UHGV virus genome: UHGV-0025826
DNA: 41,937 nucleotides
From: a virus
Reading direction: 5' to 3' (one strand)
Made by a program: the position numbers and the translations under genes. Within the stretch, counting starts at the first letter, position 1. Every line of letters begins with the position of its first letter. The notes under the pieces are model-generated. The model worked only from the letters and a program-made list of their open reading frames with translations, was not told the origin of the DNA and made no database searches. Shown one piece after another: positions 30,710-38,500 of the stretch.

Positions 30710-31399
30710 TCACACCATCCCGTTCGACTTGTTGCGGTTGTACTTGGCCAGCAGCAGCTGGATCGGCGTCGGCCCTTGCTCGGCAGCTGGTGCGGCAATA
30801 GCCCGGCGTACCGGCGGCACTGGCTTACCCTCGGTGACGCGCCTTTCCCACATGTCCAGCAGATCGCCTGCCTCGCGTGCCAGTTCACCATGCGTTAACT
30901 GGCGCTCGGTGCTGCGGTGGCGCAATTCTACGCAAATGTGGTACATGACCGGCTGCGACCATGGAAATTGCTCGCTGGAGATGAATTCGAACGAGCGGTT
31001 ACGCCAGTCCCAGTATTCGGCGATCACCTGGTCAACGTTGACGCCCAGCGCGCCGCCGCTCTGCTTGCACCAGGCGACGAACTGGCCCGGCGACGGCAGG
31101 AATGGGCGCTCCTGGCGGCGGGCAATGCGCATGCCGGCATCGACCTGAGCCATGGTGTGGATCCCGTTCTCCTGAAACGCCAGCAGCCACTGACGGCGGA
31201 ATTCGTTCAGGTCTTCCTGGGTGCGGAAGTTCGCCATGCTGGCCGGGAACGCGGCGCGCAGCTCGTTGAACAGCTTGTTGAATACCTGCGCCACCTGCTC
31301 GACCGGCGCGCACTCCTGGTACTGCTCTGGCAGGTTATGGGCCATGCGGCTCATCTGCTCGCGGTCGTGGTTACGCATCTGCTCTGCAAGAGATTTCAT
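30710..31399 (-). CDS. P: Replication protein P (helicase loader, lambda P family)
   Basis: 229 aa; near-collinear with recalled lambda P (MKxxAxQMxNxDREQMxRxAxNxPEQY...VAQ..N..F..L.A.FPAS.AN...Q...NE.RRQW.LAF.ENGI.TM.QV.AGMR.ARRQ.RPFLPSPGQFVAWC). Confidence 0.85.
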   Translation of the reverse strand: MKSLAEQMRNHDREQMSRMAHNLPEQYQECAPVEQVAQVFNKLFNELRAAFPASMANFRTQEDLNEFRRQWLLAFQENGIHTMAQVDAGMRIARRQERPFLPSPGQFVAWCKQSGGALGVNVDQVIAEYWDWRNRSFEFISSEQFPWSQPVMYHICVELRHRSTERQLTHGELAREAGDLLDMWERRVTEGKPVPPVRRAIAAPAAEQGPTPIQLLLAKYNRNKSNGMV

Positions 31400-32304
31400 C
31401 GGATCACCCCATAGGCCCAGTCAGTGTTGTTGAAGTCCAGATCTGGCTTGACAGCGCGCTGCTCACCTCCGGCGTTACGCTGCATTGTCAGCTTGTCCCA
31501 CTGCTTACGCAGGCTTTCGGGACTCAGGATGTTGGTCTGCCAGAAGTGGTGTTTGCTAGCCCAGTCATACAGCGCGCAGATGTCCTGGTGCGACCGGTCG
31601 TCTATCTGGCGCATCAGGCGAACAGTGTTAGACCAGGAGGTCATGTCCGGGGCTTTGCAGGTTGGGTTAATCAGCTTCACCCTGGAGGAAATCCACTTAG
31701 CTGTCTCGAGGTCTTCAGCAGAGCCCCACTTCGCACCGGATGGTGTGTAGACCGCAGCTTCAGGATGAGTTGATAAAAATTTCTTCAGACGTGCGTCAGA
31801 GGATTCGTCAGAATTCTCGGACGAAGATCTTTTAATACTGTTCTTGTTCTTGTATTGGGTGTCTACCGTTTTCGGGAAGGTTATTCCTGATTTCGGGAAG
31901 GATTTTCCCGTTTTCGGGAATTTTCTTCCCGTTTCCGGTTTGTCTAAAATCCATGCTGAAAGGTCAGTGTTTACACCGACGATTTTCATCATGCCCTGCT
32001 TCTGTGAAAAGATGATTTTGCGTTCTGCGAGAGACTTAAGCGCGTCCGATACATGCGTATCGCTCAGGCCCGTAAGCTCGGCAATAACCGTATTTGTCAC
32101 GCGGTCCTGTTTCTTGTTCCAGCCGTAGGTAAGCCAGATCACCGCCTCAAAACATTGCCATTCCCGGCCTGACAGTCTCAGGCGAGGCTTAAGCTGTTGG
32201 ATCTCGTTAGCGACCTTGGTATACCCGTTCGACAGGTCGGCCATACGACCTCCCGGTTGTTCGGTTTTATTTGGGAATTTGAATATTTCAGCGGTATTTG
32301 ACAT
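31396..32304 (-). CDS. O: Replication initiator O (lambda O family)
   Basis: Start set to ATG at 32304 with GGAGAA upstream; N-terminal LTYGWNKKQDRVTNTVIAELTGL resembles lambda O KTYGWNKPMDRITDSQLSEITKL; iterons inside the gene; stop overlaps P start. Confidence 0.75.
   Translation of the reverse strand: MSNTAEIFKFPNKTEQPGGRMADLSNGYTKVANEIQQLKPRLRLSGREWQCFEAVIWLTYGWNKKQDRVTNTVIAELTGLSDTHVSDALKSLAERKIIFSQKQGMMKIVGVNTDLSAWILDKPETGRKFPKTGKSFPKSGITFPKTVDTQYKNKNSIKRSSSENSDESSDARLKKFLSTHPEAAVYTPSGAKWGSAEDLETAKWISSRVKLINPTCKAPDMTSWSNTVRLMRQIDDRSHQDICALYDWASKHHFWQTNILSPESLRKQWDKLTMQRNAGGEQRAVKPDLDFNNTDWAYGVIR
31867..31944. repeat. Origin-like iterons inside the O gene
   Basis: Four direct repeats spaced about 20-21 bp (three with core tttcgggaa, a fourth degenerate tttccgg) with an AT-richer stretch on the low-coordinate side. 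Confidence 0.5.
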
Positions 32305-32388
32305 ACTGTTCTCCGCAATTACGCACAGTTTTTGCACCTGAAAGCCGTTGGTGTTCGAGCACCGCGGCTTTCGCCATTTCTGAGCCCG

Positions 32389-32946
32389 TCATAGCGCACC
32401 ACCCAGCATCGTTGTAACCATCGCCATAATGGGCGCCACAGAATCAGGTCCGTCCAGGTAGAGCTTGGCTACGATGCTCTCGCTGATTTCCTTCATCCGT
32501 TCGTGTCTGGGGGCTTTGAGGACGACAGCCTGTATCGCCTCAGCGTCTTCTTTCACCGACCTGGCGACACGAACCGCAAAGCAGTCGTGCTTAATCACGC
32601 GATCCCGGTACGCCAGCGGCAGAACCGAAATTATTACCGGCGCCAGCTGCTCGACGTTCGCCCGGTAGGCCGGTGATTTCTCGTGGTTGTCCAGCCAGCG
32701 AAACAGCTTCACGTTCCACACATCGGCGCTGCCGGTCATGTCAATGCTGTCAAGCTCGGCCTGTTCGGCAGCCTCTTTAATCGCCAGAGCGACCGCCACG
32801 CGACCCTCTGCCGCCGCCCAGGCGCGGACGGCAGAACAGATAGCCCGGTGATCGATCGGCTGGCCTTCAGCCTCACTGTGTTGATACTGGAATTTCAGGT
32901 GCTCTGATGGCGCTCTGTTATTCTGTTGAAAAGAAAGTGTTTGCAT
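32389..32946 (-). CDS. YdaT/CII-like regulatory protein
   Basis: 185 aa; first gene after the cro-like gene; NVKLFRWLDNHEKSPAYRANVEQLAPVIISVLPLAYRDRV resembles recalled Rac YdaT. Confidence 0.45.
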   Translation of the reverse strand: MQTLSFQQNNRAPSEHLKFQYQHSEAEGQPIDHRAICSAVRAWAAAEGRVAVALAIKEAAEQAELDSIDMTGSADVWNVKLFRWLDNHEKSPAYRANVEQLAPVIISVLPLAYRDRVIKHDCFAVRVARSVKEDAEAIQAVVLKAPRHERMKEISESIVAKLYLDGPDSVAPIMAMVTTMLGGAL

Positions 32947-32957
32947 TGTCAGTGCTC

Positions 32958-33176
32958 CTACTTTGGTAATCCGTCAGTGGGATTTGGATAGAGATCAGGG
33001 CGCAGCTCGTGGGGGGTTACGCCTGTCATTTTGAAAATCGGGAAGATATAGCTTGGCGGGACGATCCCTTGGTCACGATTCTTCCAATGACTTACAGACA
33101 TACTCGTCACACCAAGCGCGATGCTGAGCTTTCTGGCAGAGCCAGCGGCTTTAATTGCTTTATCGAGTGCGGACAT
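32958..33176 (-). CDS. Cro-like HTH regulator (YdaS/Cro family)
   Basis: 72 aa; HTH ARKLSIALGVTSMSVSHW and ELRPDLY motif; divergent from the repressor; AGGAGAA RBS. Confidence 0.65.
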   Translation of the reverse strand: MSALDKAIKAAGSARKLSIALGVTSMSVSHWKNRDQGIVPPSYIFPIFKMTGVTPHELRPDLYPNPTDGLPK

Positions 33177-33278
33177 GTGCTTCTCCTGCTTATTGATAGC
33201 AGAAGTAAACCACAGATTTATACTTCATGCAAACTTTGGATTTATTGCGTGCATAAACCAAATATTTACAATGACCAT
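33177..33278. promoter_or_regulatory. Divergent immunity promoter/operator region
   Basis: Inverted repeat CTGCT-N7-AGCAG at 33186-33202; recurring gcaWaaac-like half-sites; plus-strand -35 TTGCGT (33245-33250) and -10 TACAAT (33267-33272) ending 6 nt before the repressor ATG. Confidence 0.45.
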
Positions 33279-33668
33279 ATGAGAAAAGAAGAACCCAACC
33301 TCGTTCTGGTGGAGCGCCTTACTGAGATCACTGATCGCGGCGTTACCAAAGCAGACATGGCAAGAATAGCTGGAGTCACCCCTCAGGCCGTAAACGGCTG
33401 GTTCAAAAAAGGCGTGATTAGTAAGAAATCGGCACTGGCCATAGCCGACGCTGTTGGTATTTCTGTCGCCTGGCTACTCGGTGAAGACGTTGGGGAGAAA
33501 GACGGTCTCAAACCGGACGAACAGCGTTTGCTCGAGCTCTACCGCCAGTTACCGGAAGAAGAGCAGCAGAACATGCTCCGCATTTTTGCGCTTCGCCTGA
33601 AAGAGTTAGATGAGCTGTACGAGAAGTACATGAAGGGTCGGATTCGATCGCAAGGTGAGCAAACCTAA
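33279..33668 (+). CDS. Prophage repressor (XRE-family HTH, no LexA-like peptidase domain)
   Basis: 129 aa from ATG at 33279; HTH ITDRGVTKADMARIAGVTPQAVNGWFKKG; C-terminal coiled-coil-like segment; divergent from cro-like gene. Confidence 0.65.
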   Translation: MRKEEPNLVLVERLTEITDRGVTKADMARIAGVTPQAVNGWFKKGVISKKSALAIADAVGISVAWLLGEDVGEKDGLKPDEQRLLELYRQLPEEEQQNMLRIFALRLKELDELYEKYMKGRIRSQGEQT

Positions 33669-33732
33669 ACCAGTAGTATCTAATTCCATGTAATAAAAAT
33701 ATTTCAAGATTTAATATCTTCTGGAGGATTCG

Positions 33733-34014
33733 GTGTCTAAAGAAACAACCGTCGAACTTATGCATCTTAATGATGTAATCGAAGCGAAAAATTTCATCGA
33801 GACCAATGCTGACGGTGTCGTAACAATCGGCACACAAAATGCCGGTTACGAAGTTTACAATTTTGTGTTCCTGAATAGCAGCCCGATCATCGGTACGGAT
33901 AATGCGGATATAGTCGTCAAGGGCATGCAGCGAACCAAAGTTGTGTCTGTGACTTTAAGCAAACAAAAGGCTTATGATTTTTATCAATCCTTAAAAAGTA
34001 TGTTTGAGGAATAA
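33733..34014 (+). CDS. Hypothetical 93-aa protein, cassette B gene 1 (rexA/sieB position)
   Basis: GTG start with GGAGGA upstream; directly downstream of and co-oriented with the repressor; looks AT-rich by eye. Confidence 0.5.
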   Translation: MSKETTVELMHLNDVIEAKNFIETNADGVVTIGTQNAGYEVYNFVFLNSSPIIGTDNADIVVKGMQRTKVVSVTLSKQKAYDFYQSLKSMFEE

Positions 34015-34020
34015 TAATTG

Positions 34021-34542
34021 ATGGATGCGGCTCAATCATCTCTTGGTGAAGGGAAGTTATTGATTGCATATTCAGACCATAGCGGAGCTACAGTAGGCTT
34101 AGAGTTTTCATCAGTAGCTTCGAGCCAAGCAACCTTCCTTATGGGTGCTTGTAGTTTTGCCGCTTCGGATAAACAAAAACGGATTGTCACATCAGTTGCT
34201 ATGGATGATACTGAAATCATTCATACGTCAACTGAAGATGGAGGTGACGACATGGAAAAGAGATTGGCTATTCTTGAGGTTGAAGTTGCCCACATCAAGA
34301 AAGATGTTGCCGAGATAAAAAACACAGTTTCAAAAGTTGATACGACAGTGAATTCACTGGACAAAAATATGGCTGTAGTTTTGGAGAGGCTGTCTAGTAT
34401 CAAAGAGTCTGTAGACAAAAAGCCCTCATCAGACACAGTGGACAAGAAAATCTCTGATGCTAAATTGGCGATTCTCTTAGGTGTCCCTGCGATTATCGCC
34501 ATTGGTACAGGGCTGTACAAAGCTTTTATGCACTTCTTTTAG
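34021..34542 (+). CDS. Hypothetical tail-anchored membrane protein with coiled coil, cassette B gene 2
   Basis: ATG 7 nt after gene 1 stop; heptad-like region (LAILEVEVAHIKKDVAEIKNTVSKVDTTVNSL...) then C-terminal hydrophobic AILLGVPAIIAIGTGLY. Confidence 0.5.
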   Translation: MDAAQSSLGEGKLLIAYSDHSGATVGLEFSSVASSQATFLMGACSFAASDKQKRIVTSVAMDDTEIIHTSTEDGGDDMEKRLAILEVEVAHIKKDVAEIKNTVSKVDTTVNSLDKNMAVVLERLSSIKESVDKKPSSDTVDKKISDAKLAILLGVPAIIAIGTGLYKAFMHFF

Positions 34543-34616
34543 TCAGATTTGGTCAATACGCCTGAGTTATAAGGCTCTCAGCTACTAACTCTGTCGCCTT
34601 CCCCGAACCTTCTCAT

Positions 34617-34642
34617 CCCGACCACGCGTCGGGATTTTTTTT
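34617..34642 (+). terminator. Rho-independent terminator closing the repressor/cassette B transcript
   Basis: cccgac-cacgc-gtcggg stem-loop followed by T8. Confidence 0.65.
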
Positions 34643-34716
34643 GCCTGCGATTCTGCAGACGTGTCACAAAACCCAGCCACATAAACCTCAGATTTACAAT
34701 TAATACCAACCCTAAG

Positions 34717-34745
34717 TTGACATATATATAAACCAGTGATTTAAT
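34717..34745 (+). promoter_or_regulatory. Candidate early-left (PL-like) promoter
   Basis: TTGACA (34717-34722), 17-nt spacer, TTTAAT (34740-34745), just downstream of the terminator. Confidence 0.4.
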
Positions 34746-34997
34746 CTAACTCACCAAGACGCACCACGAACCACCCAAGCATGGAGCCCACGAAGTAGCC
34801 GTCCGGGGCATACGAAAACCGGAATGAGGTGGTGATATTAACGCGCAGTAGGTTTGAAACGTTCCGCCAGCCTGGCGACAAGGGCAAACACAGAAGTGAG
34901 CTTCGCGGTGGTGAATTGCAGAGTTAAAACGCTCAACTGTGAAGATCAGCGTCACGGCACCACCAGCGAAGTTCACTCAGCAATAGTGGAGAACATC

Positions 34998-35204
34998 ATG
35001 GTTCATCAGCACTACGGTACACAGACAGTAAACCGCGGCGCAGTTCAGCCGGGGATGCTTGTAAAACACAAAGACTCAACCTGGACGGCATCAGCTAACG
35101 CTCGCGGACGTTTGTATCTGCATCGCGGCGTAGAAATGACTTACACCAAGGATTTGCTGGTTGAAGTTTATCTGAACGGTCTGGGGCATGGACTCAGCCA
35201 CTAG
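34998..35204 (+). CDS. Hypothetical early protein (68 aa)
   Basis: ATG at 34998 with GGAGAA upstream; the longer frame from 34854 begins with TTG and has no RBS. Confidence 0.3.
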   Translation: MVHQHYGTQTVNRGAVQPGMLVKHKDSTWTASANARGRLYLHRGVEMTYTKDLLVEVYLNGLGHGLSH

Positions 35205-35215
35205 CGGAGGATGTC

Positions 35216-35377
35216 ATGTTAGACAAGAAATGCGGATATTGCGGCAAGCCGGTTAAAACGGAGGAAGTAATCAAGAGCACCCTTCTCTATCGCAACGGCT
35301 CACAGCTGGCGCGCAAAGAAAAAGAGTATTGCTCCAAACGTTGCGCTTCGCACGACCAGATGGCTCACGAAGGCTAA
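35216..35377 (+). CDS. Small Cys4 zinc-ribbon-like protein (53 aa)
   Basis: MLDKKCGYCGK...EYCSKRCASHDQ; GGAGGA 7 nt upstream of ATG; below the ORF-track size cut-off. Confidence 0.35.
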   Translation: MLDKKCGYCGKPVKTEEVIKSTLLYRNGSQLARKEKEYCSKRCASHDQMAHEG

Positions 35378-35516
35378 CGTAAAACCCGCGCAAGGCGGGA
35401 TCTACGTCCGGTGGTACCGACCAAAGTTACACCGGAAACAACATTAAAACCAAAGTTAACCCAATGGGCGCTATCAATGGTCCGGGGATTCTAACACCCA
35501 AAAATGAGGATCTCAC

Positions 35517-38500
35517 ATGGAATTCTTTAATGTGGTTAAAGCCACTCAGAAATCCGGAAAGCAAGATGCAGTGGTCTGGTTCACTGCTAAAACCGAGGCT
35601 CGCGCCAATCTGATGCTGGATGTTGCGCTGGAAGATGCAGGTATCGAAACAGGTCGGGGTAAGGACTACGCCAAACCGATTCGCACTGATTTCCCAGTTG
35701 TCGACGGTCTGCCGAAAGAAGGTGAAGTTGATTTTACCTGGTGTGATCGCTACGAGCTTCAGGACGATGGGCGCACCTGGCTGCCAAAAGCCGCTGGTGT
35801 GTCTACTGGTTCCGTTGACGCCCCCTACACACCTACTCCGACCGTAATCGTTGAAGATGCGACTGCGTCCGAAATTGTCCCGGTTGAAAACCGTACTCCA
35901 GCGGTCCGCTTTGCCGTCCATCTGATGAACGATAAATACCAAACCCACGTCACTAAAGAGCAGCAGTTGGCTGCCAGCGAAATGTCACTGGATGAAGGCA
36001 ATACATATCTCCATAGCCTGCTTGTGGCAAGGAACGATGTGCCCGCGACCGCCAAACTCAGCCTGAATGCTGAGTGGAAAATGATTCGGGCGGTTAAGGA
36101 CATTTTCACACCAGACGAAGAGCACGAACCAAGATTGATCGCTGCATTCATGTCTGACTGGGTGAACACCGATGCCGGTGACCGCAATCAACTGGTAGAA
36201 GACTGGCGCAGTGGTAAGTTGCAGTTGCTCAAAACTGAAACCAGCAACGCTGCTGACGTTACAACTGGTCAAGATCTCACTGTTGAGGACGGTATCCAGA
36301 CCGACGAGAACGGCCGGGCAGAAGGTGGCGTCGTTGATGGTGAAGTCGATACCGAAGAGCAATCCCAGCAGACACAGCAACCGAACCTGATCGTTGTTGC
36401 CACCCTGCCATTCCGCCAGCGCGTACTGGCTCAGTTCATCGGTGATGGTGAATATCTCTATCACATCGACGCAGGGCAGAAAAATGAGATTGTCCGCCTT
36501 GAGATGGACACCGATGACGCGTACGTCCAGAACCTGCTGCTGGCAGCTGAGAATGTGGAAGCATTCAAAAAAGCCATTGAGCACGATATTCATAAAGTCG
36601 TGAATGCCGTTAAGAAAGTCTTCCCTGTCGATGGTAAAAAACCGGAGCTGGCAACAGTTATCCAGTTCCTGACTGTGTGGTTCAACACTGATTACATCGA
36701 CCGTGGCCTGCTGGTCAAGGAATGGCAGAAAGGTAACCGCGTTGCGCAGATTCAACGTACTGACGTCAAAACCAATGCTGGCGGTGGAAATAAGACCGAT
36801 CGTAATACCGACTATGTCCACACACTGGACACTTTGGATGTTGAAATTGCGCTGGCCACCTTGCCAATGGATTTCAATATCTACGACATACCTGGTGGGG
36901 TCTACCGTCGCGCTAAAGAGATTGTCAGCAAGAAAGAAAGTCCGTTCAGCGAATGGTCTGAGGCGCTGCGCAAAACCGCTGGCATCCTGGACTATTCACG
37001 CGCCGCCATCTTTGCACTCATCCGCGGCACATCATCAGAATTGGTTAACTTTCCTGGGCGGTTGCGGGCATATATCAATGCCAATCTAACCGAAAATGAC
37101 CACTCAAACCTCTCAGAAGAAACGCTGGCTGATGCTGGTCATGCGCCGGACGTCAGCTGGGAAAATGAGGTTAATGAGCAGGTCGCTGCAGAGCAGAAAA
37201 CAGCTGCTAAACAGCCACAAATCGCCAACATGGGCAACGGCGTATTCTCCATTGATGGCCTGATGGGCGATCAACAAACACAAACAGATAACCGTTCACC
37301 ACTTAATGAGGAAACCACCAGCAATGTGCAGATGGAAGAAACTGTCAGTGATGAAGAACAGGCTGGTGATGAAGTGCAGTCAGGCGAAAGCAGTCTGGAA
37401 ACTGGTGAAGAGTCACATACCGGCCAGCAAGCCGATGTGAGCCAGAATGCGGATTCTGTTAGCCAAAACAGCGATTCTGTAAACCAAACCGAACCGGTTG
37501 CGGCCCAAACCGAGCCAGAAGCTCAATCTGACGAACCGGGTGTTGTGTACCCTGCTTACTTCGAACCTGGCCGCTATGAAGGTCTGCCGAACGAGGTTTA
37601 CCACGCTGCCAACGGCATCAGTTCCACCCAGGTAAAAGATGCGCGCGTTTCGCTGATGTACTTCAATGCGCGCCACGTTGAGAAAACCATCGTCAAAGAG
37701 CGCTCCTCAGTGCTGGACATGGGAAACCTGGTACATGCGCTGGCGTTGCAGCCAGAACAGCTCGATGAAGAATTTAGCGTTGAACCCGTAATTCCGGAAG
37801 GTGCATTTACCACCACGGCAACGATCCGCGCGTTTATTGATGAGTACAACGCCAGCCTGCCAGCGCAACTGAGCGCAGACGATATCAAAGCTTTGCTGGA
37901 TGAATACAACGCCACCCTGCCAGCGCTGGTGCCGCTGGGCGCTAGCCTGGATGAAACGGCGCAGAACTATATGGCGCTGCCAGCTGAATTCCAACGTATC
38001 GATGCAGATCAGAAGAAGACAGCAACAGCAATGAAGGCGTGCATCAAAGAGTACAACGCCACCCTGCCAGCGCAGATTAAAACCAGCGGCAGCCGCGACG
38101 CACTACTCGAACAACTTGCGATTATCAATCCTGACCTGGTCGCGCAGGAAGCTCAGAAGCTGCAACCGCTGAAAGTCTCTGGCACGAAGGCCGATCTGAT
38201 TCAGGCCGTGAAGGCAGTCAAACCAGATGCAGTGTTCGCCGACGAGCTGCTCGATGCGTGGCGCAACAACCCGGAAGGGAAAGTGCTGGTTACCCACCAG
38301 CAACTTGCCACCGCGCAGGCAATTCAGTCAGCACTGCTCTCGCACCCGACCGCAGGCATGCTGCTAACCCACCCGAGCCGCGCCGTTGAGGTGAGCTACT
38401 TTGGCTTTGACGAGGAGACGGGACTGGAAGTTCGTGTGCGCCCTGACCTTGAGATCGACCTAGACGGCGTGCGTATCGGTGCTGACCTGAAAACCATCAG

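Follow-up and report, generated by a model that had tools for sequence, protein, structure and literature searches.

We describe here a two-gene cassette, A-B, in the virus genome UHGV-0025826, a stretch of 41,937 nucleotides (nt) that is called the window below and is a Rac-like lambdoid prophage of Escherichia coli. Gene A encodes a small soluble protein of 93 amino acids (aa), gene B a coiled-coil membrane protein of 173 aa, and both lie directly downstream of the prophage repressor gene. The reading we favour, at a probability of about 0.45, is that A-B is a lysogen-expressed, Rex-like two-component anti-phage cassette carried by the prophage and belonging to a new family, with the function read from position and architecture only. 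Taken together, a lysogen-expressed accessory system in conflict with other phages fits best with the position of the pair, its moron-like base composition, the close coupling of its genes, the rapid exchange of one part while the membrane part stays conserved, the other cargo found in the slot of strain ET881, whose immunity region is otherwise identical, and the IS3 insertion found in strain KL53.

The immunity region of the window comprises the following features.

32958..33176, minus strand: cro-like gene with a helix-turn-helix (HTH) of the YdaS family, divergent from the repressor (Pfam YdaS_toxin, 1.4e-13; phrog_35; called 'transcriptional regulator' by the Prokaryotic Genome Annotation Pipeline, PGAP).
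33206-33220 and 33254-33268, no strand assigned: OR-like region with two operator-like motifs TAAACC-N5-TTTA (motif count).
33279..33668, plus strand: repressor of 129 aa, HTH only, without an S24 peptidase domain (Pfam HTH_3, 1.5e-6, above cutoff; Phage_CI_repr, 8.6e-4; NCBIfam DicA-like, 1.9e-8).
33733..34014, plus strand: gene A (open reading frame ORF1), 93 aa, GTG start (phrog_12039, function unknown).
34021..34542, plus strand: gene B (ORF2), 173 aa, putative tail-anchored coiled-coil membrane protein (phrog_12602 and phrog_3556, function unknown).
34615..34645, plus strand: intrinsic terminator, equivalent to Timm, predicted end of the repressor-A-B unit (8-bp stem with five GC pairs at 34615-34635, then a T run).
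34682..34745, plus strand: OL/PL-like region, with operator-like motifs at 34682-34696 and 34729-34743 around TTGACA-17-TTTAAT at 34717-34745 (motif count and sequence reading).

Four copies of TAAACC-N5-TTTA were counted in the 42-kb window, where 0.03 would be expected: two between the cro-like gene and the repressor, and two flanking the downstream promoter. With operator-like motifs on both sides, the cassette is thus placed inside the immunity region, between OR and OL, like rexAB in lambda. The promoter-like site TTGACA-17-TTTAAT is 72 nt past the terminator, and kilR (34998-35204), ydaE and recE lie downstream of the OL/PL-like region. At the homologous position in phage HK544 the terminator is Timm according to the depositors' annotation. 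Between the repressor stop codon and 34615 we found no terminator-like site on the plus strand, the other plus-strand sites being only upstream of or within the repressor gene. A and B are most likely transcribed with the repressor from a PRM-type promoter, and this transcription would stop at the Timm-type terminator; by analogy with lambda rexAB, such co-transcription would mean that both proteins are made in the lysogen. A TACAAT hexamer (33267-33272), overlapped by an operator-like motif, ends 7 nt before the repressor ATG (33279), and the repressor mRNA may be leaderless from a PRM-type promoter, like that of lambda cI; PGAP places the repressor start at GTG 33249, within the operator-like motif region. 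The GC content over 33600-34500 is 0.40-0.41 compared with 0.50-0.55 in the flanks, and the low GC of the cassette is a moron-like signature. An earlier note on this DNA had described the locus as AT-rich, with a strong terminator at 34617..34642 and a PL-like promoter beyond it, and these descriptions were confirmed, the stem and T run extending slightly further on both sides.

Gene A starts with GTG, and a Shine-Dalgarno (SD) sequence, GGAGG, lies 5 nt upstream. Its first nine residues are kept in all 13 aligned homologues and the length of 93 aa in 11 of the 13; PGAP starts the gene at ATG 33760 (84 aa), without an SD. The two genes share one reading frame with TAA TAA TTG between them, the ATG of B following 7 nt after the last base of the stop codon of A (a gap of 6 nt). 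The strong SD, the start of B 7 nt after A, and the location of both genes downstream of and co-oriented with the HTH_3 repressor had all been read correctly before. Overlaps of 1-29 nt between the two genes are seen in other cassette types. Compared with a homologue whose proteins are 81-83% identical, the ratio of nonsynonymous to synonymous substitution (dN/dS) is 0.10 for gene A and 0.06 for gene B, with synonymous sites near saturation; this indicates purifying selection on real genes rather than chance ORFs. The product of A, with a pI of 4.9, is acidic and lacks any hydrophobic segment, in line with the small soluble protein proposed for it, and a fold of six strands and a C-terminal helix is predicted with low confidence by AlphaFold2 (AF2; predicted local distance difference test score, pLDDT, 43).

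Homologues of the pair, with 74-75% and 55% identity, were found in phage HK544, in the Stx1 phage VT1-Sakai (ECs2991/ECs2992) and in phiSTEC801. The cI gene, operators, PRM, PL and Timm of HK544 are lambda-like, and HK544c104/c103 stand exactly between cI and Timm, where lambda has rexA-rexB, so that in this phage of lambda immunity rexAB is literally replaced by the A-B cassette. In VT1-Sakai the pair comes after cI. The earlier note had spoken of a rexAB/sieB position; the rexAB part holds and has gained strength, and the comparison with sieB is loose, since VT1-Sakai has the pair plus a separate annotated sieB beyond N. In four further types the pair immediately follows a repressor and precedes PL/N or kilR: an E. 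coli 147-aa B relative with an 87-aa partner, a Klebsiella 126-aa relative with a 144-aa partner, an Erwiniaceae 175-aa relative with a 95-aa homologue of A, and, in a sister Rac-like prophage, a 142-aa relative with an 88-aa partner.

In total 82 related loci were collected, 80 of them by a scan of IMG/VR, a viral and redundant sample whose context proportions are indicative only. A gene is present upstream of B in 81 of the 82, and for 80 of these 81 the distance between the two ranges from -29 to +14 nt. Among the 54 distinct ORFs next upstream of the pair, 40 matched HTH_3, 32 Peptidase_S24 and two an Arc-like family (Pfam), and phage repressors account for at least 42 of the 54. An exhaustive profile search for B returned 1402 representative clusters at E<=1e-3, with 102 at the stricter E<=1e-10. 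Proteins of 90-185 aa make up most of them and are built alike: a variable N-terminus is followed by a Gly-rich run, the pattern M-E-x-R-V-A-x-L-E-x-D-V-x-x-I-K and, at the C-terminus, a membrane helix. Of the distant members, three were followed to their loci: one comes after the repressor of a P2/P4-like element, one belongs to a stand-alone chromosomal pair and one to a pair whose proteins are 74 and 96 aa long. Among the 5426 complete E. coli genomes compared, 13 carry the window type, 205 the 147-aa type and 93 the HK544 type, about 311 as summed counts (~6%).

The protein of gene B is composed of the following parts.

34021..34194, plus strand: head, residues 1-58, predicted beta-hairpin, helix and strand (AF2 secondary structure, pLDDT ~60; mosaic boundaries; co-variation with gene A).
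34195..34251, plus strand: linker, residues 59-77, predicted disordered, Gly-rich, ending in DGGDD (pLDDT <50).
34252..34419, plus strand: coiled-coil stalk, residues 78-133, from the conserved Met78 (heptad register).
34261-34278, plus strand: putative trimerisation motif R81-L-A-I-L-E86 (R-h-x-x-h-E pattern).
34417..34428, plus strand: KKPS hinge (K133-K-P-S136) between the stalk and the juxtamembrane helix (invariant columns; AF2 helix break at 133-136).
34459..34518, plus strand: single predicted C-terminal transmembrane (TM) helix, residues ~147-166, followed by seven residues (peak of Kyte-Doolittle hydropathy over 19 residues, KD19).

The heptad register is unbroken from residue 78 to 133, with L, I, V or M at 15 of the 17 a/d positions, and the only hydrophobic peak covers residues 147-165 (KD19 1.96), which agrees with the coiled coil and one C-terminal hydrophobic helix noticed earlier. 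The AF2 model of B (overall pLDDT 59) shows helices at 78-132 and 137-172, interrupted by a break at KKPS. K134, P135 and S136 are invariant across 32 homologues of the close family, while in the wider family conservation is highest at R81, L85, E86, V89 and I92, each of which is kept in 90% or more of 66 relatives. The segment R81-L-A-I-L-E86 stands in g-a-d-e register, with L82 at a and L85 at d, and the R-h-x-x-h-E motif, the most strongly conserved feature, is present in 60 of the 66 relatives. The pattern Arg(g)-h(a)-x-x-h(d)-Glu(e) biases coiled coils towards a parallel three-stranded form and is also found in some dimers (PMC3653964). The stalk of B is probably a parallel trimer. In 57 of the 66 relatives the only TM segment lies within 20 aa of the C-terminus, and in 51 of these 57 Lys and Arg are more numerous before it than after. 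From the single C-terminal TM segment, the missing signal peptide and the positive-inside bias we infer that B is a tail-anchored inner-membrane protein, N-terminus in, with its bulk in the cytoplasm.

The partner genes fall into 9-12 mutually unrelated sequence clusters, the number depending on the clustering settings, and each A type is paired with its own type of B N-terminus, the one exception being a singleton A cluster with one locus. The stalk-anchor module is common to B across the 82 loci. The sequence of the membrane helix belongs to several unrelated types, which vary independently of the A/head type, and this variability favours the trimeric stalk as a tether or transmitter rather than as a channel by itself. 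BLASTP between the A types revealed no homology among them, and a homologue search with one A type, looking for pairing with other effectors, returned only the query itself. The idea that the B head is a paralogue of A was rejected (hhalign probability 1%).

Aligned as DNA, the window and the sister prophage (L015) are 87% identical over the 3′ half of the repressor gene; similarity is lost over 33659-34239, from 10 nt before the repressor stop codon, and comes back at 34240, in the Gly-rich linker and 12 nt before Met78. The window and HK544 have only gene A, the B head and the first 16 stalk codons in common. By these comparisons gene A is exchanged together with the B head as a single block, with the conserved stalk start as the apparent recombination junction. 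We infer that A binds the B head.

The slot after the repressor is, judged from the strains compared, a cargo hotspot. In E. coli KL53 (L104, NZ_CP030919.1, 1122-2706) an IS3 element is inserted in gene B at the equivalent of window position ~34380; the protein is cut to 119 aa and loses its membrane helix, and the prophage is otherwise identical. E. coli ET881 (L105, NZ_CP100890.1, 3006-4409) has the same cro, YdaT and repressor 5′ part (99% identical), and its slot holds a single gene of 434-467 aa instead of A-B. From these two strains it follows that the pair is dispensable for the prophage. The N-terminus of the ET881 slot protein resembles an Ntn-hydrolase start (MTAEIVVINNTGIALAADSA), and the protein had no match in PADLOC or the PDB.

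An internal start at Met78, yielding a head-less isoform of 96 aa, is plausible. The linker DNA contains GGAGGTGA at 34240-34247, a SD-like sequence 4-5 nt before the ATG at 34252 with a calculated anti-SD duplex of -10.6 kcal/mol. The conserved stalk Met is likewise preceded by GGAGG, 5-9 nt upstream, in the HK544, Klebsiella, Erwiniaceae and L015 types, which makes five of six lineages including the window, and the 147-aa type has a weaker GGGAG before it. The 96-aa form is already annotated by some gene callers.

Under the favoured reading, B would sit at the inner membrane by its C-terminal helix, with a rigid stalk of ~55 residues in a parallel trimer, a flexible Gly-rich linker and a small exchangeable head, all in the cytoplasm except the anchor. 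The exchangeable part, A together with the B head, would recognise a component of an incoming phage, and the stalk-anchor module would then act at the membrane, either through loss of integrity or potential (abortive infection) or by capturing the target. A head-less isoform could modulate full-length B, as Esc does for SieB or S107 for S105. We might further speculate, though we hold it rather doubtful, that the stalk-anchor protein represents a widespread and new kind of modular effector against phages: a tail-anchored trimer, or 'fishing rod', at the inner face of the membrane, in which a phage-protein-specific head and its partner would trigger membrane failure or sequestration, with the head-less isoform as built-in regulator and the modules shuffled between prophages by recombination at the stalk start.

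The lambda RexA/RexB system is among the closest to A-B: two genes co-oriented with cI stand between the repressor and Timm/OL-PL, and one product is soluble and the other in the inner membrane, as is predicted for A and B. However, no sequence similarity was found (Pfam, PHROGs, NCBIfam and PADLOC, E<=1). RexB is polytopic, with four helices in the inner membrane; in B a single C-terminal helix is predicted besides the coiled coil, and in A none, and A with its 93 aa is one third of the size of RexA. RexAB excludes T4 rII and other phages by membrane depolarisation; the likeness of A-B to it is one of position and architecture. SieB of P22, lambda and Rac is a prophage membrane protein made in the lysogen, as B would be, and the internal in-frame start that gives Esc would have its counterpart in the putative start at Met78. 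Unlike the pair, sieB lies beyond N in the PL operon, VT1-Sakai carries both, and no Pfam or PHROGs match to SieB was found at E<=1.

XhlA (PF10779), from the PBSX lysis cluster, is short and has an N-terminal coiled coil and a C-terminal membrane helix, so that the topology called XhlA-like in the earlier note stands as architecture. In sequence the resemblance stays below threshold: relatives of B score 22-25 bits (best 25.4) against a gathering threshold of 34.7, three of the 66 relatives match at E<=1e-3, and B itself has no XhlA match at E<=1. The A-B family differs further in its Gly-rich linker, variable head, obligatory upstream partner and the lack of a holin/endolysin neighbourhood. 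Membership of the Rex, SieB and XhlA families was rejected on these tests. The C-tail-anchored E. coli proteins ElaB, YqjD and YgaM (DUF883) have a cytoplasmic helical region and a single C-terminal anchor, the topology predicted for B; they are, however, encoded in the chromosome by stationary-phase genes that have neither a partner gene nor a modular head, and B has no Pfam DUF883 match at E<=1. Phage 933W carries stk, a lysogen-expressed gene next to the repressor that protects against other phages. The bstA gene of BTP1 is likewise expressed in the lysogen, lies next to the repressor and protects against other phages; PMC8585504 describes BstA. Both are single genes, encoding a kinase (Stk) and a DNA-binding abortive-infection protein (BstA), not membrane coiled-coil proteins, and are unrelated to A-B.

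Neither protein had been recognised in the earlier note, which had asked for homology to SieB, KilR or another characterised protein as evidence against its proposal; in Pfam, PHROGs, NCBIfam, PADLOC and the PDB none was found. Neither protein reached the cutoff of any Pfam or NCBIfam model, and proteins of the A-B family fall in the PHROGs of unknown function 12039, 12602, 3556, 6136 and 6324. In PADLOC-DB 2.0.0 there was no match for A and only weak coiled-coil matches for B (LmuB, DruC and JetA, E ~1e-3 to 2e-2). Matches to SlyX (24.5 bits against a cutoff of 30), IcmG, LmuB, Lpp and FlaC remained below cutoff and were treated as compositional. The PDB sequence search of both proteins gave nothing meaningful, and Foldseek of the B model (pLDDT 59; this model only) against BFVD and PDB gave no hit at E<=1e-3. 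Members of the family are named 'hypothetical' in the databases or bear labels assigned automatically, SlyX and Lpp among them. Neither the literature searched nor the DefensePredictor supplements searched mention any of the six RefSeq accessions that belong to the three E. coli types.

Several points weigh against the favoured reading. Guilt by position is weak evidence for function, and the family and structure scans gave no homology to a known defence, exclusion or toxin protein. No published description of the pair was found by searches on HK544, ECs2991/2992, rexAB-slot cargo and tail-anchored defence proteins, a search that did not include Brenes and Laub 2025, where a prior description is possible. 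The contexts come from a biased sample, one distant pair stands alone in a chromosome, and the AF2 models are of low to moderate confidence (pLDDT 43 for A, 59 for B). Gene A lies next to the part of B that encodes the head, so that linkage, with recombination in the conserved stalk-coding DNA, could by itself account for the way the two vary together, in place of protein contact. The unrelated types of anchor helix fit a plain anchor better than a conserved pore-forming effector. As for the isoform, the SD-like sequence is partly forced by the Gly-Gly-Asp codons, and on synonymous recoding an SD at least as strong appeared in 3-29% of trials per lineage.

Part of the same evidence would suit a toxin-antitoxin or addiction module, in which B is a membrane toxin and A an antitoxin acting on the B head, so that the prophage or the slot is stabilised and any anti-phage effect is secondary. 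As in type II-like toxin-antitoxin pairs, the two genes are small and tightly coupled (gap 6 nt here, and the narrow range of gaps given above in 80 of 81 loci), with a small acidic upstream partner (pI 4.9) and a basic membrane module (pI 8.9). The many mutually unrelated A/head pairs resemble insulated cognate pairs, stand-alone two-gene copies exist outside prophages, and the IS3 of KL53 is in B, the putative toxin, not in A. Nevertheless we consider such a module unlikely: no similarity to a known toxin or antitoxin family was found, A is without the DNA-binding motif usual for type II antitoxins (Pfam), a trimeric stalk of 55 residues with a KPS hinge is elaborate for a simple membrane toxin, and consistent placement under repressor control is not required of an addiction module. 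A non-abortive superinfection exclusion, with the complex at the cytoplasmic face of the inner membrane stopping genome entry as SieA, T4 Imm and HK97 gp15 do while the cell survives, follows the same positional logic as the Rex-like reading. The variable anchor, long stalk and exchangeable head would even suit a tether intercepting ejected phage proteins or DNA better than a pore. Known entry blockers, however, have their functional part in the membrane or periplasm, where B is predicted to expose only ~7 residues, and no homology to SieA, Imm, Cor or gp15-type proteins was detected; we regard this explanation as rather improbable.

A role in the life cycle of host or prophage, as an XhlA-like lysis accessory, an ElaB/YqjD-like tether of a regulator or of ribosomes, or a lysogenic-conversion factor, appears very unlikely to us. 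The coiled coil with C-terminal anchor does resemble XhlA and ElaB/YqjD, and, beside the 22-25 bits of relatives on Pfam XhlA, there is a match to phrog_937 'hemolysin' (1.4e-5). But the XhlA cutoff was never reached, and in the loci read the pair is never beside holin or endolysin genes, its contexts being immunity regions or stand-alone pairs and the lysis block of the window prophage lying elsewhere; the lysis-gene reading was rejected on this genomic context. Fast exchange of A/head among ~9-12 types is typical of conflict systems and not of housekeeping tethers, and the IS3 knockout in KL53 and the replacement in ET881 show that the prophage can dispense with the pair.

Some loci of the wider collection have other surroundings. 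In L097 (4583-5276; GCA_051336815.1) a distant pair of 144 and 91 aa with a 17-nt overlap has an acetyltransferase gene on one side and cutC/yecM/argS on the other, and no phage genes are near it. Loci L041, L077 and L078 (IMG/VR) have a 119-aa partner with two CxxC pairs, zinc-ribbon-like, and follow a DUF6246 (phrog_791) gene, not a repressor. The weakest relatives (L082/L083, 1441-4459; E ~4e-6, 184 aa) come after a 629-aa protein like those associated with the tail or tape measure, and may be a different family with only the coiled coil in common.

The region 33200-34750 has a copy of more than 99% identity in 13 of the 5426 complete E. coli genomes. The matching prophage of strain VE-F5 is integrated beside kch; the region is flanked there to one side by replication O/P-like genes, Q and the genes for lysis, terminase and capsid, and to the other by kilR, ydaE, recE, recT and integrase. 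For kilR in the window, the mechanical ORF of 116 aa with a TTG start (34854-35204) is over-extended; the PHROG Kil match covers its residues 43-115, and the PGAP call is 34998-35204 (68 aa). The Rfam scan of 31000-37000 gave no RNA family above cutoff. A sub-threshold match to the Hfq-binding small RNA isrB was located at 35379-35475 on the minus strand (28.6 bits against a cutoff of 35, E 0.04), between ydaE and recE.

Should the pair protect lysogens, it would join the short list of rexAB-slot cargo as a two-component system that is new and distinct in mechanism. Its exchangeable recognition part and conserved membrane part would then provide a tractable model for the diversification of prophage defence specificity, and for how a simple tail-anchored coiled coil signals to or damages the membrane. 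Three types alone are present in ~6% of complete E. coli genomes, and the Stx1 prophage of O157:H7 Sakai is among the carriers. Even if the function is not defence, a large unannotated family, with more than 1400 clusters at 50% identity and no Pfam entry, has been delimited.

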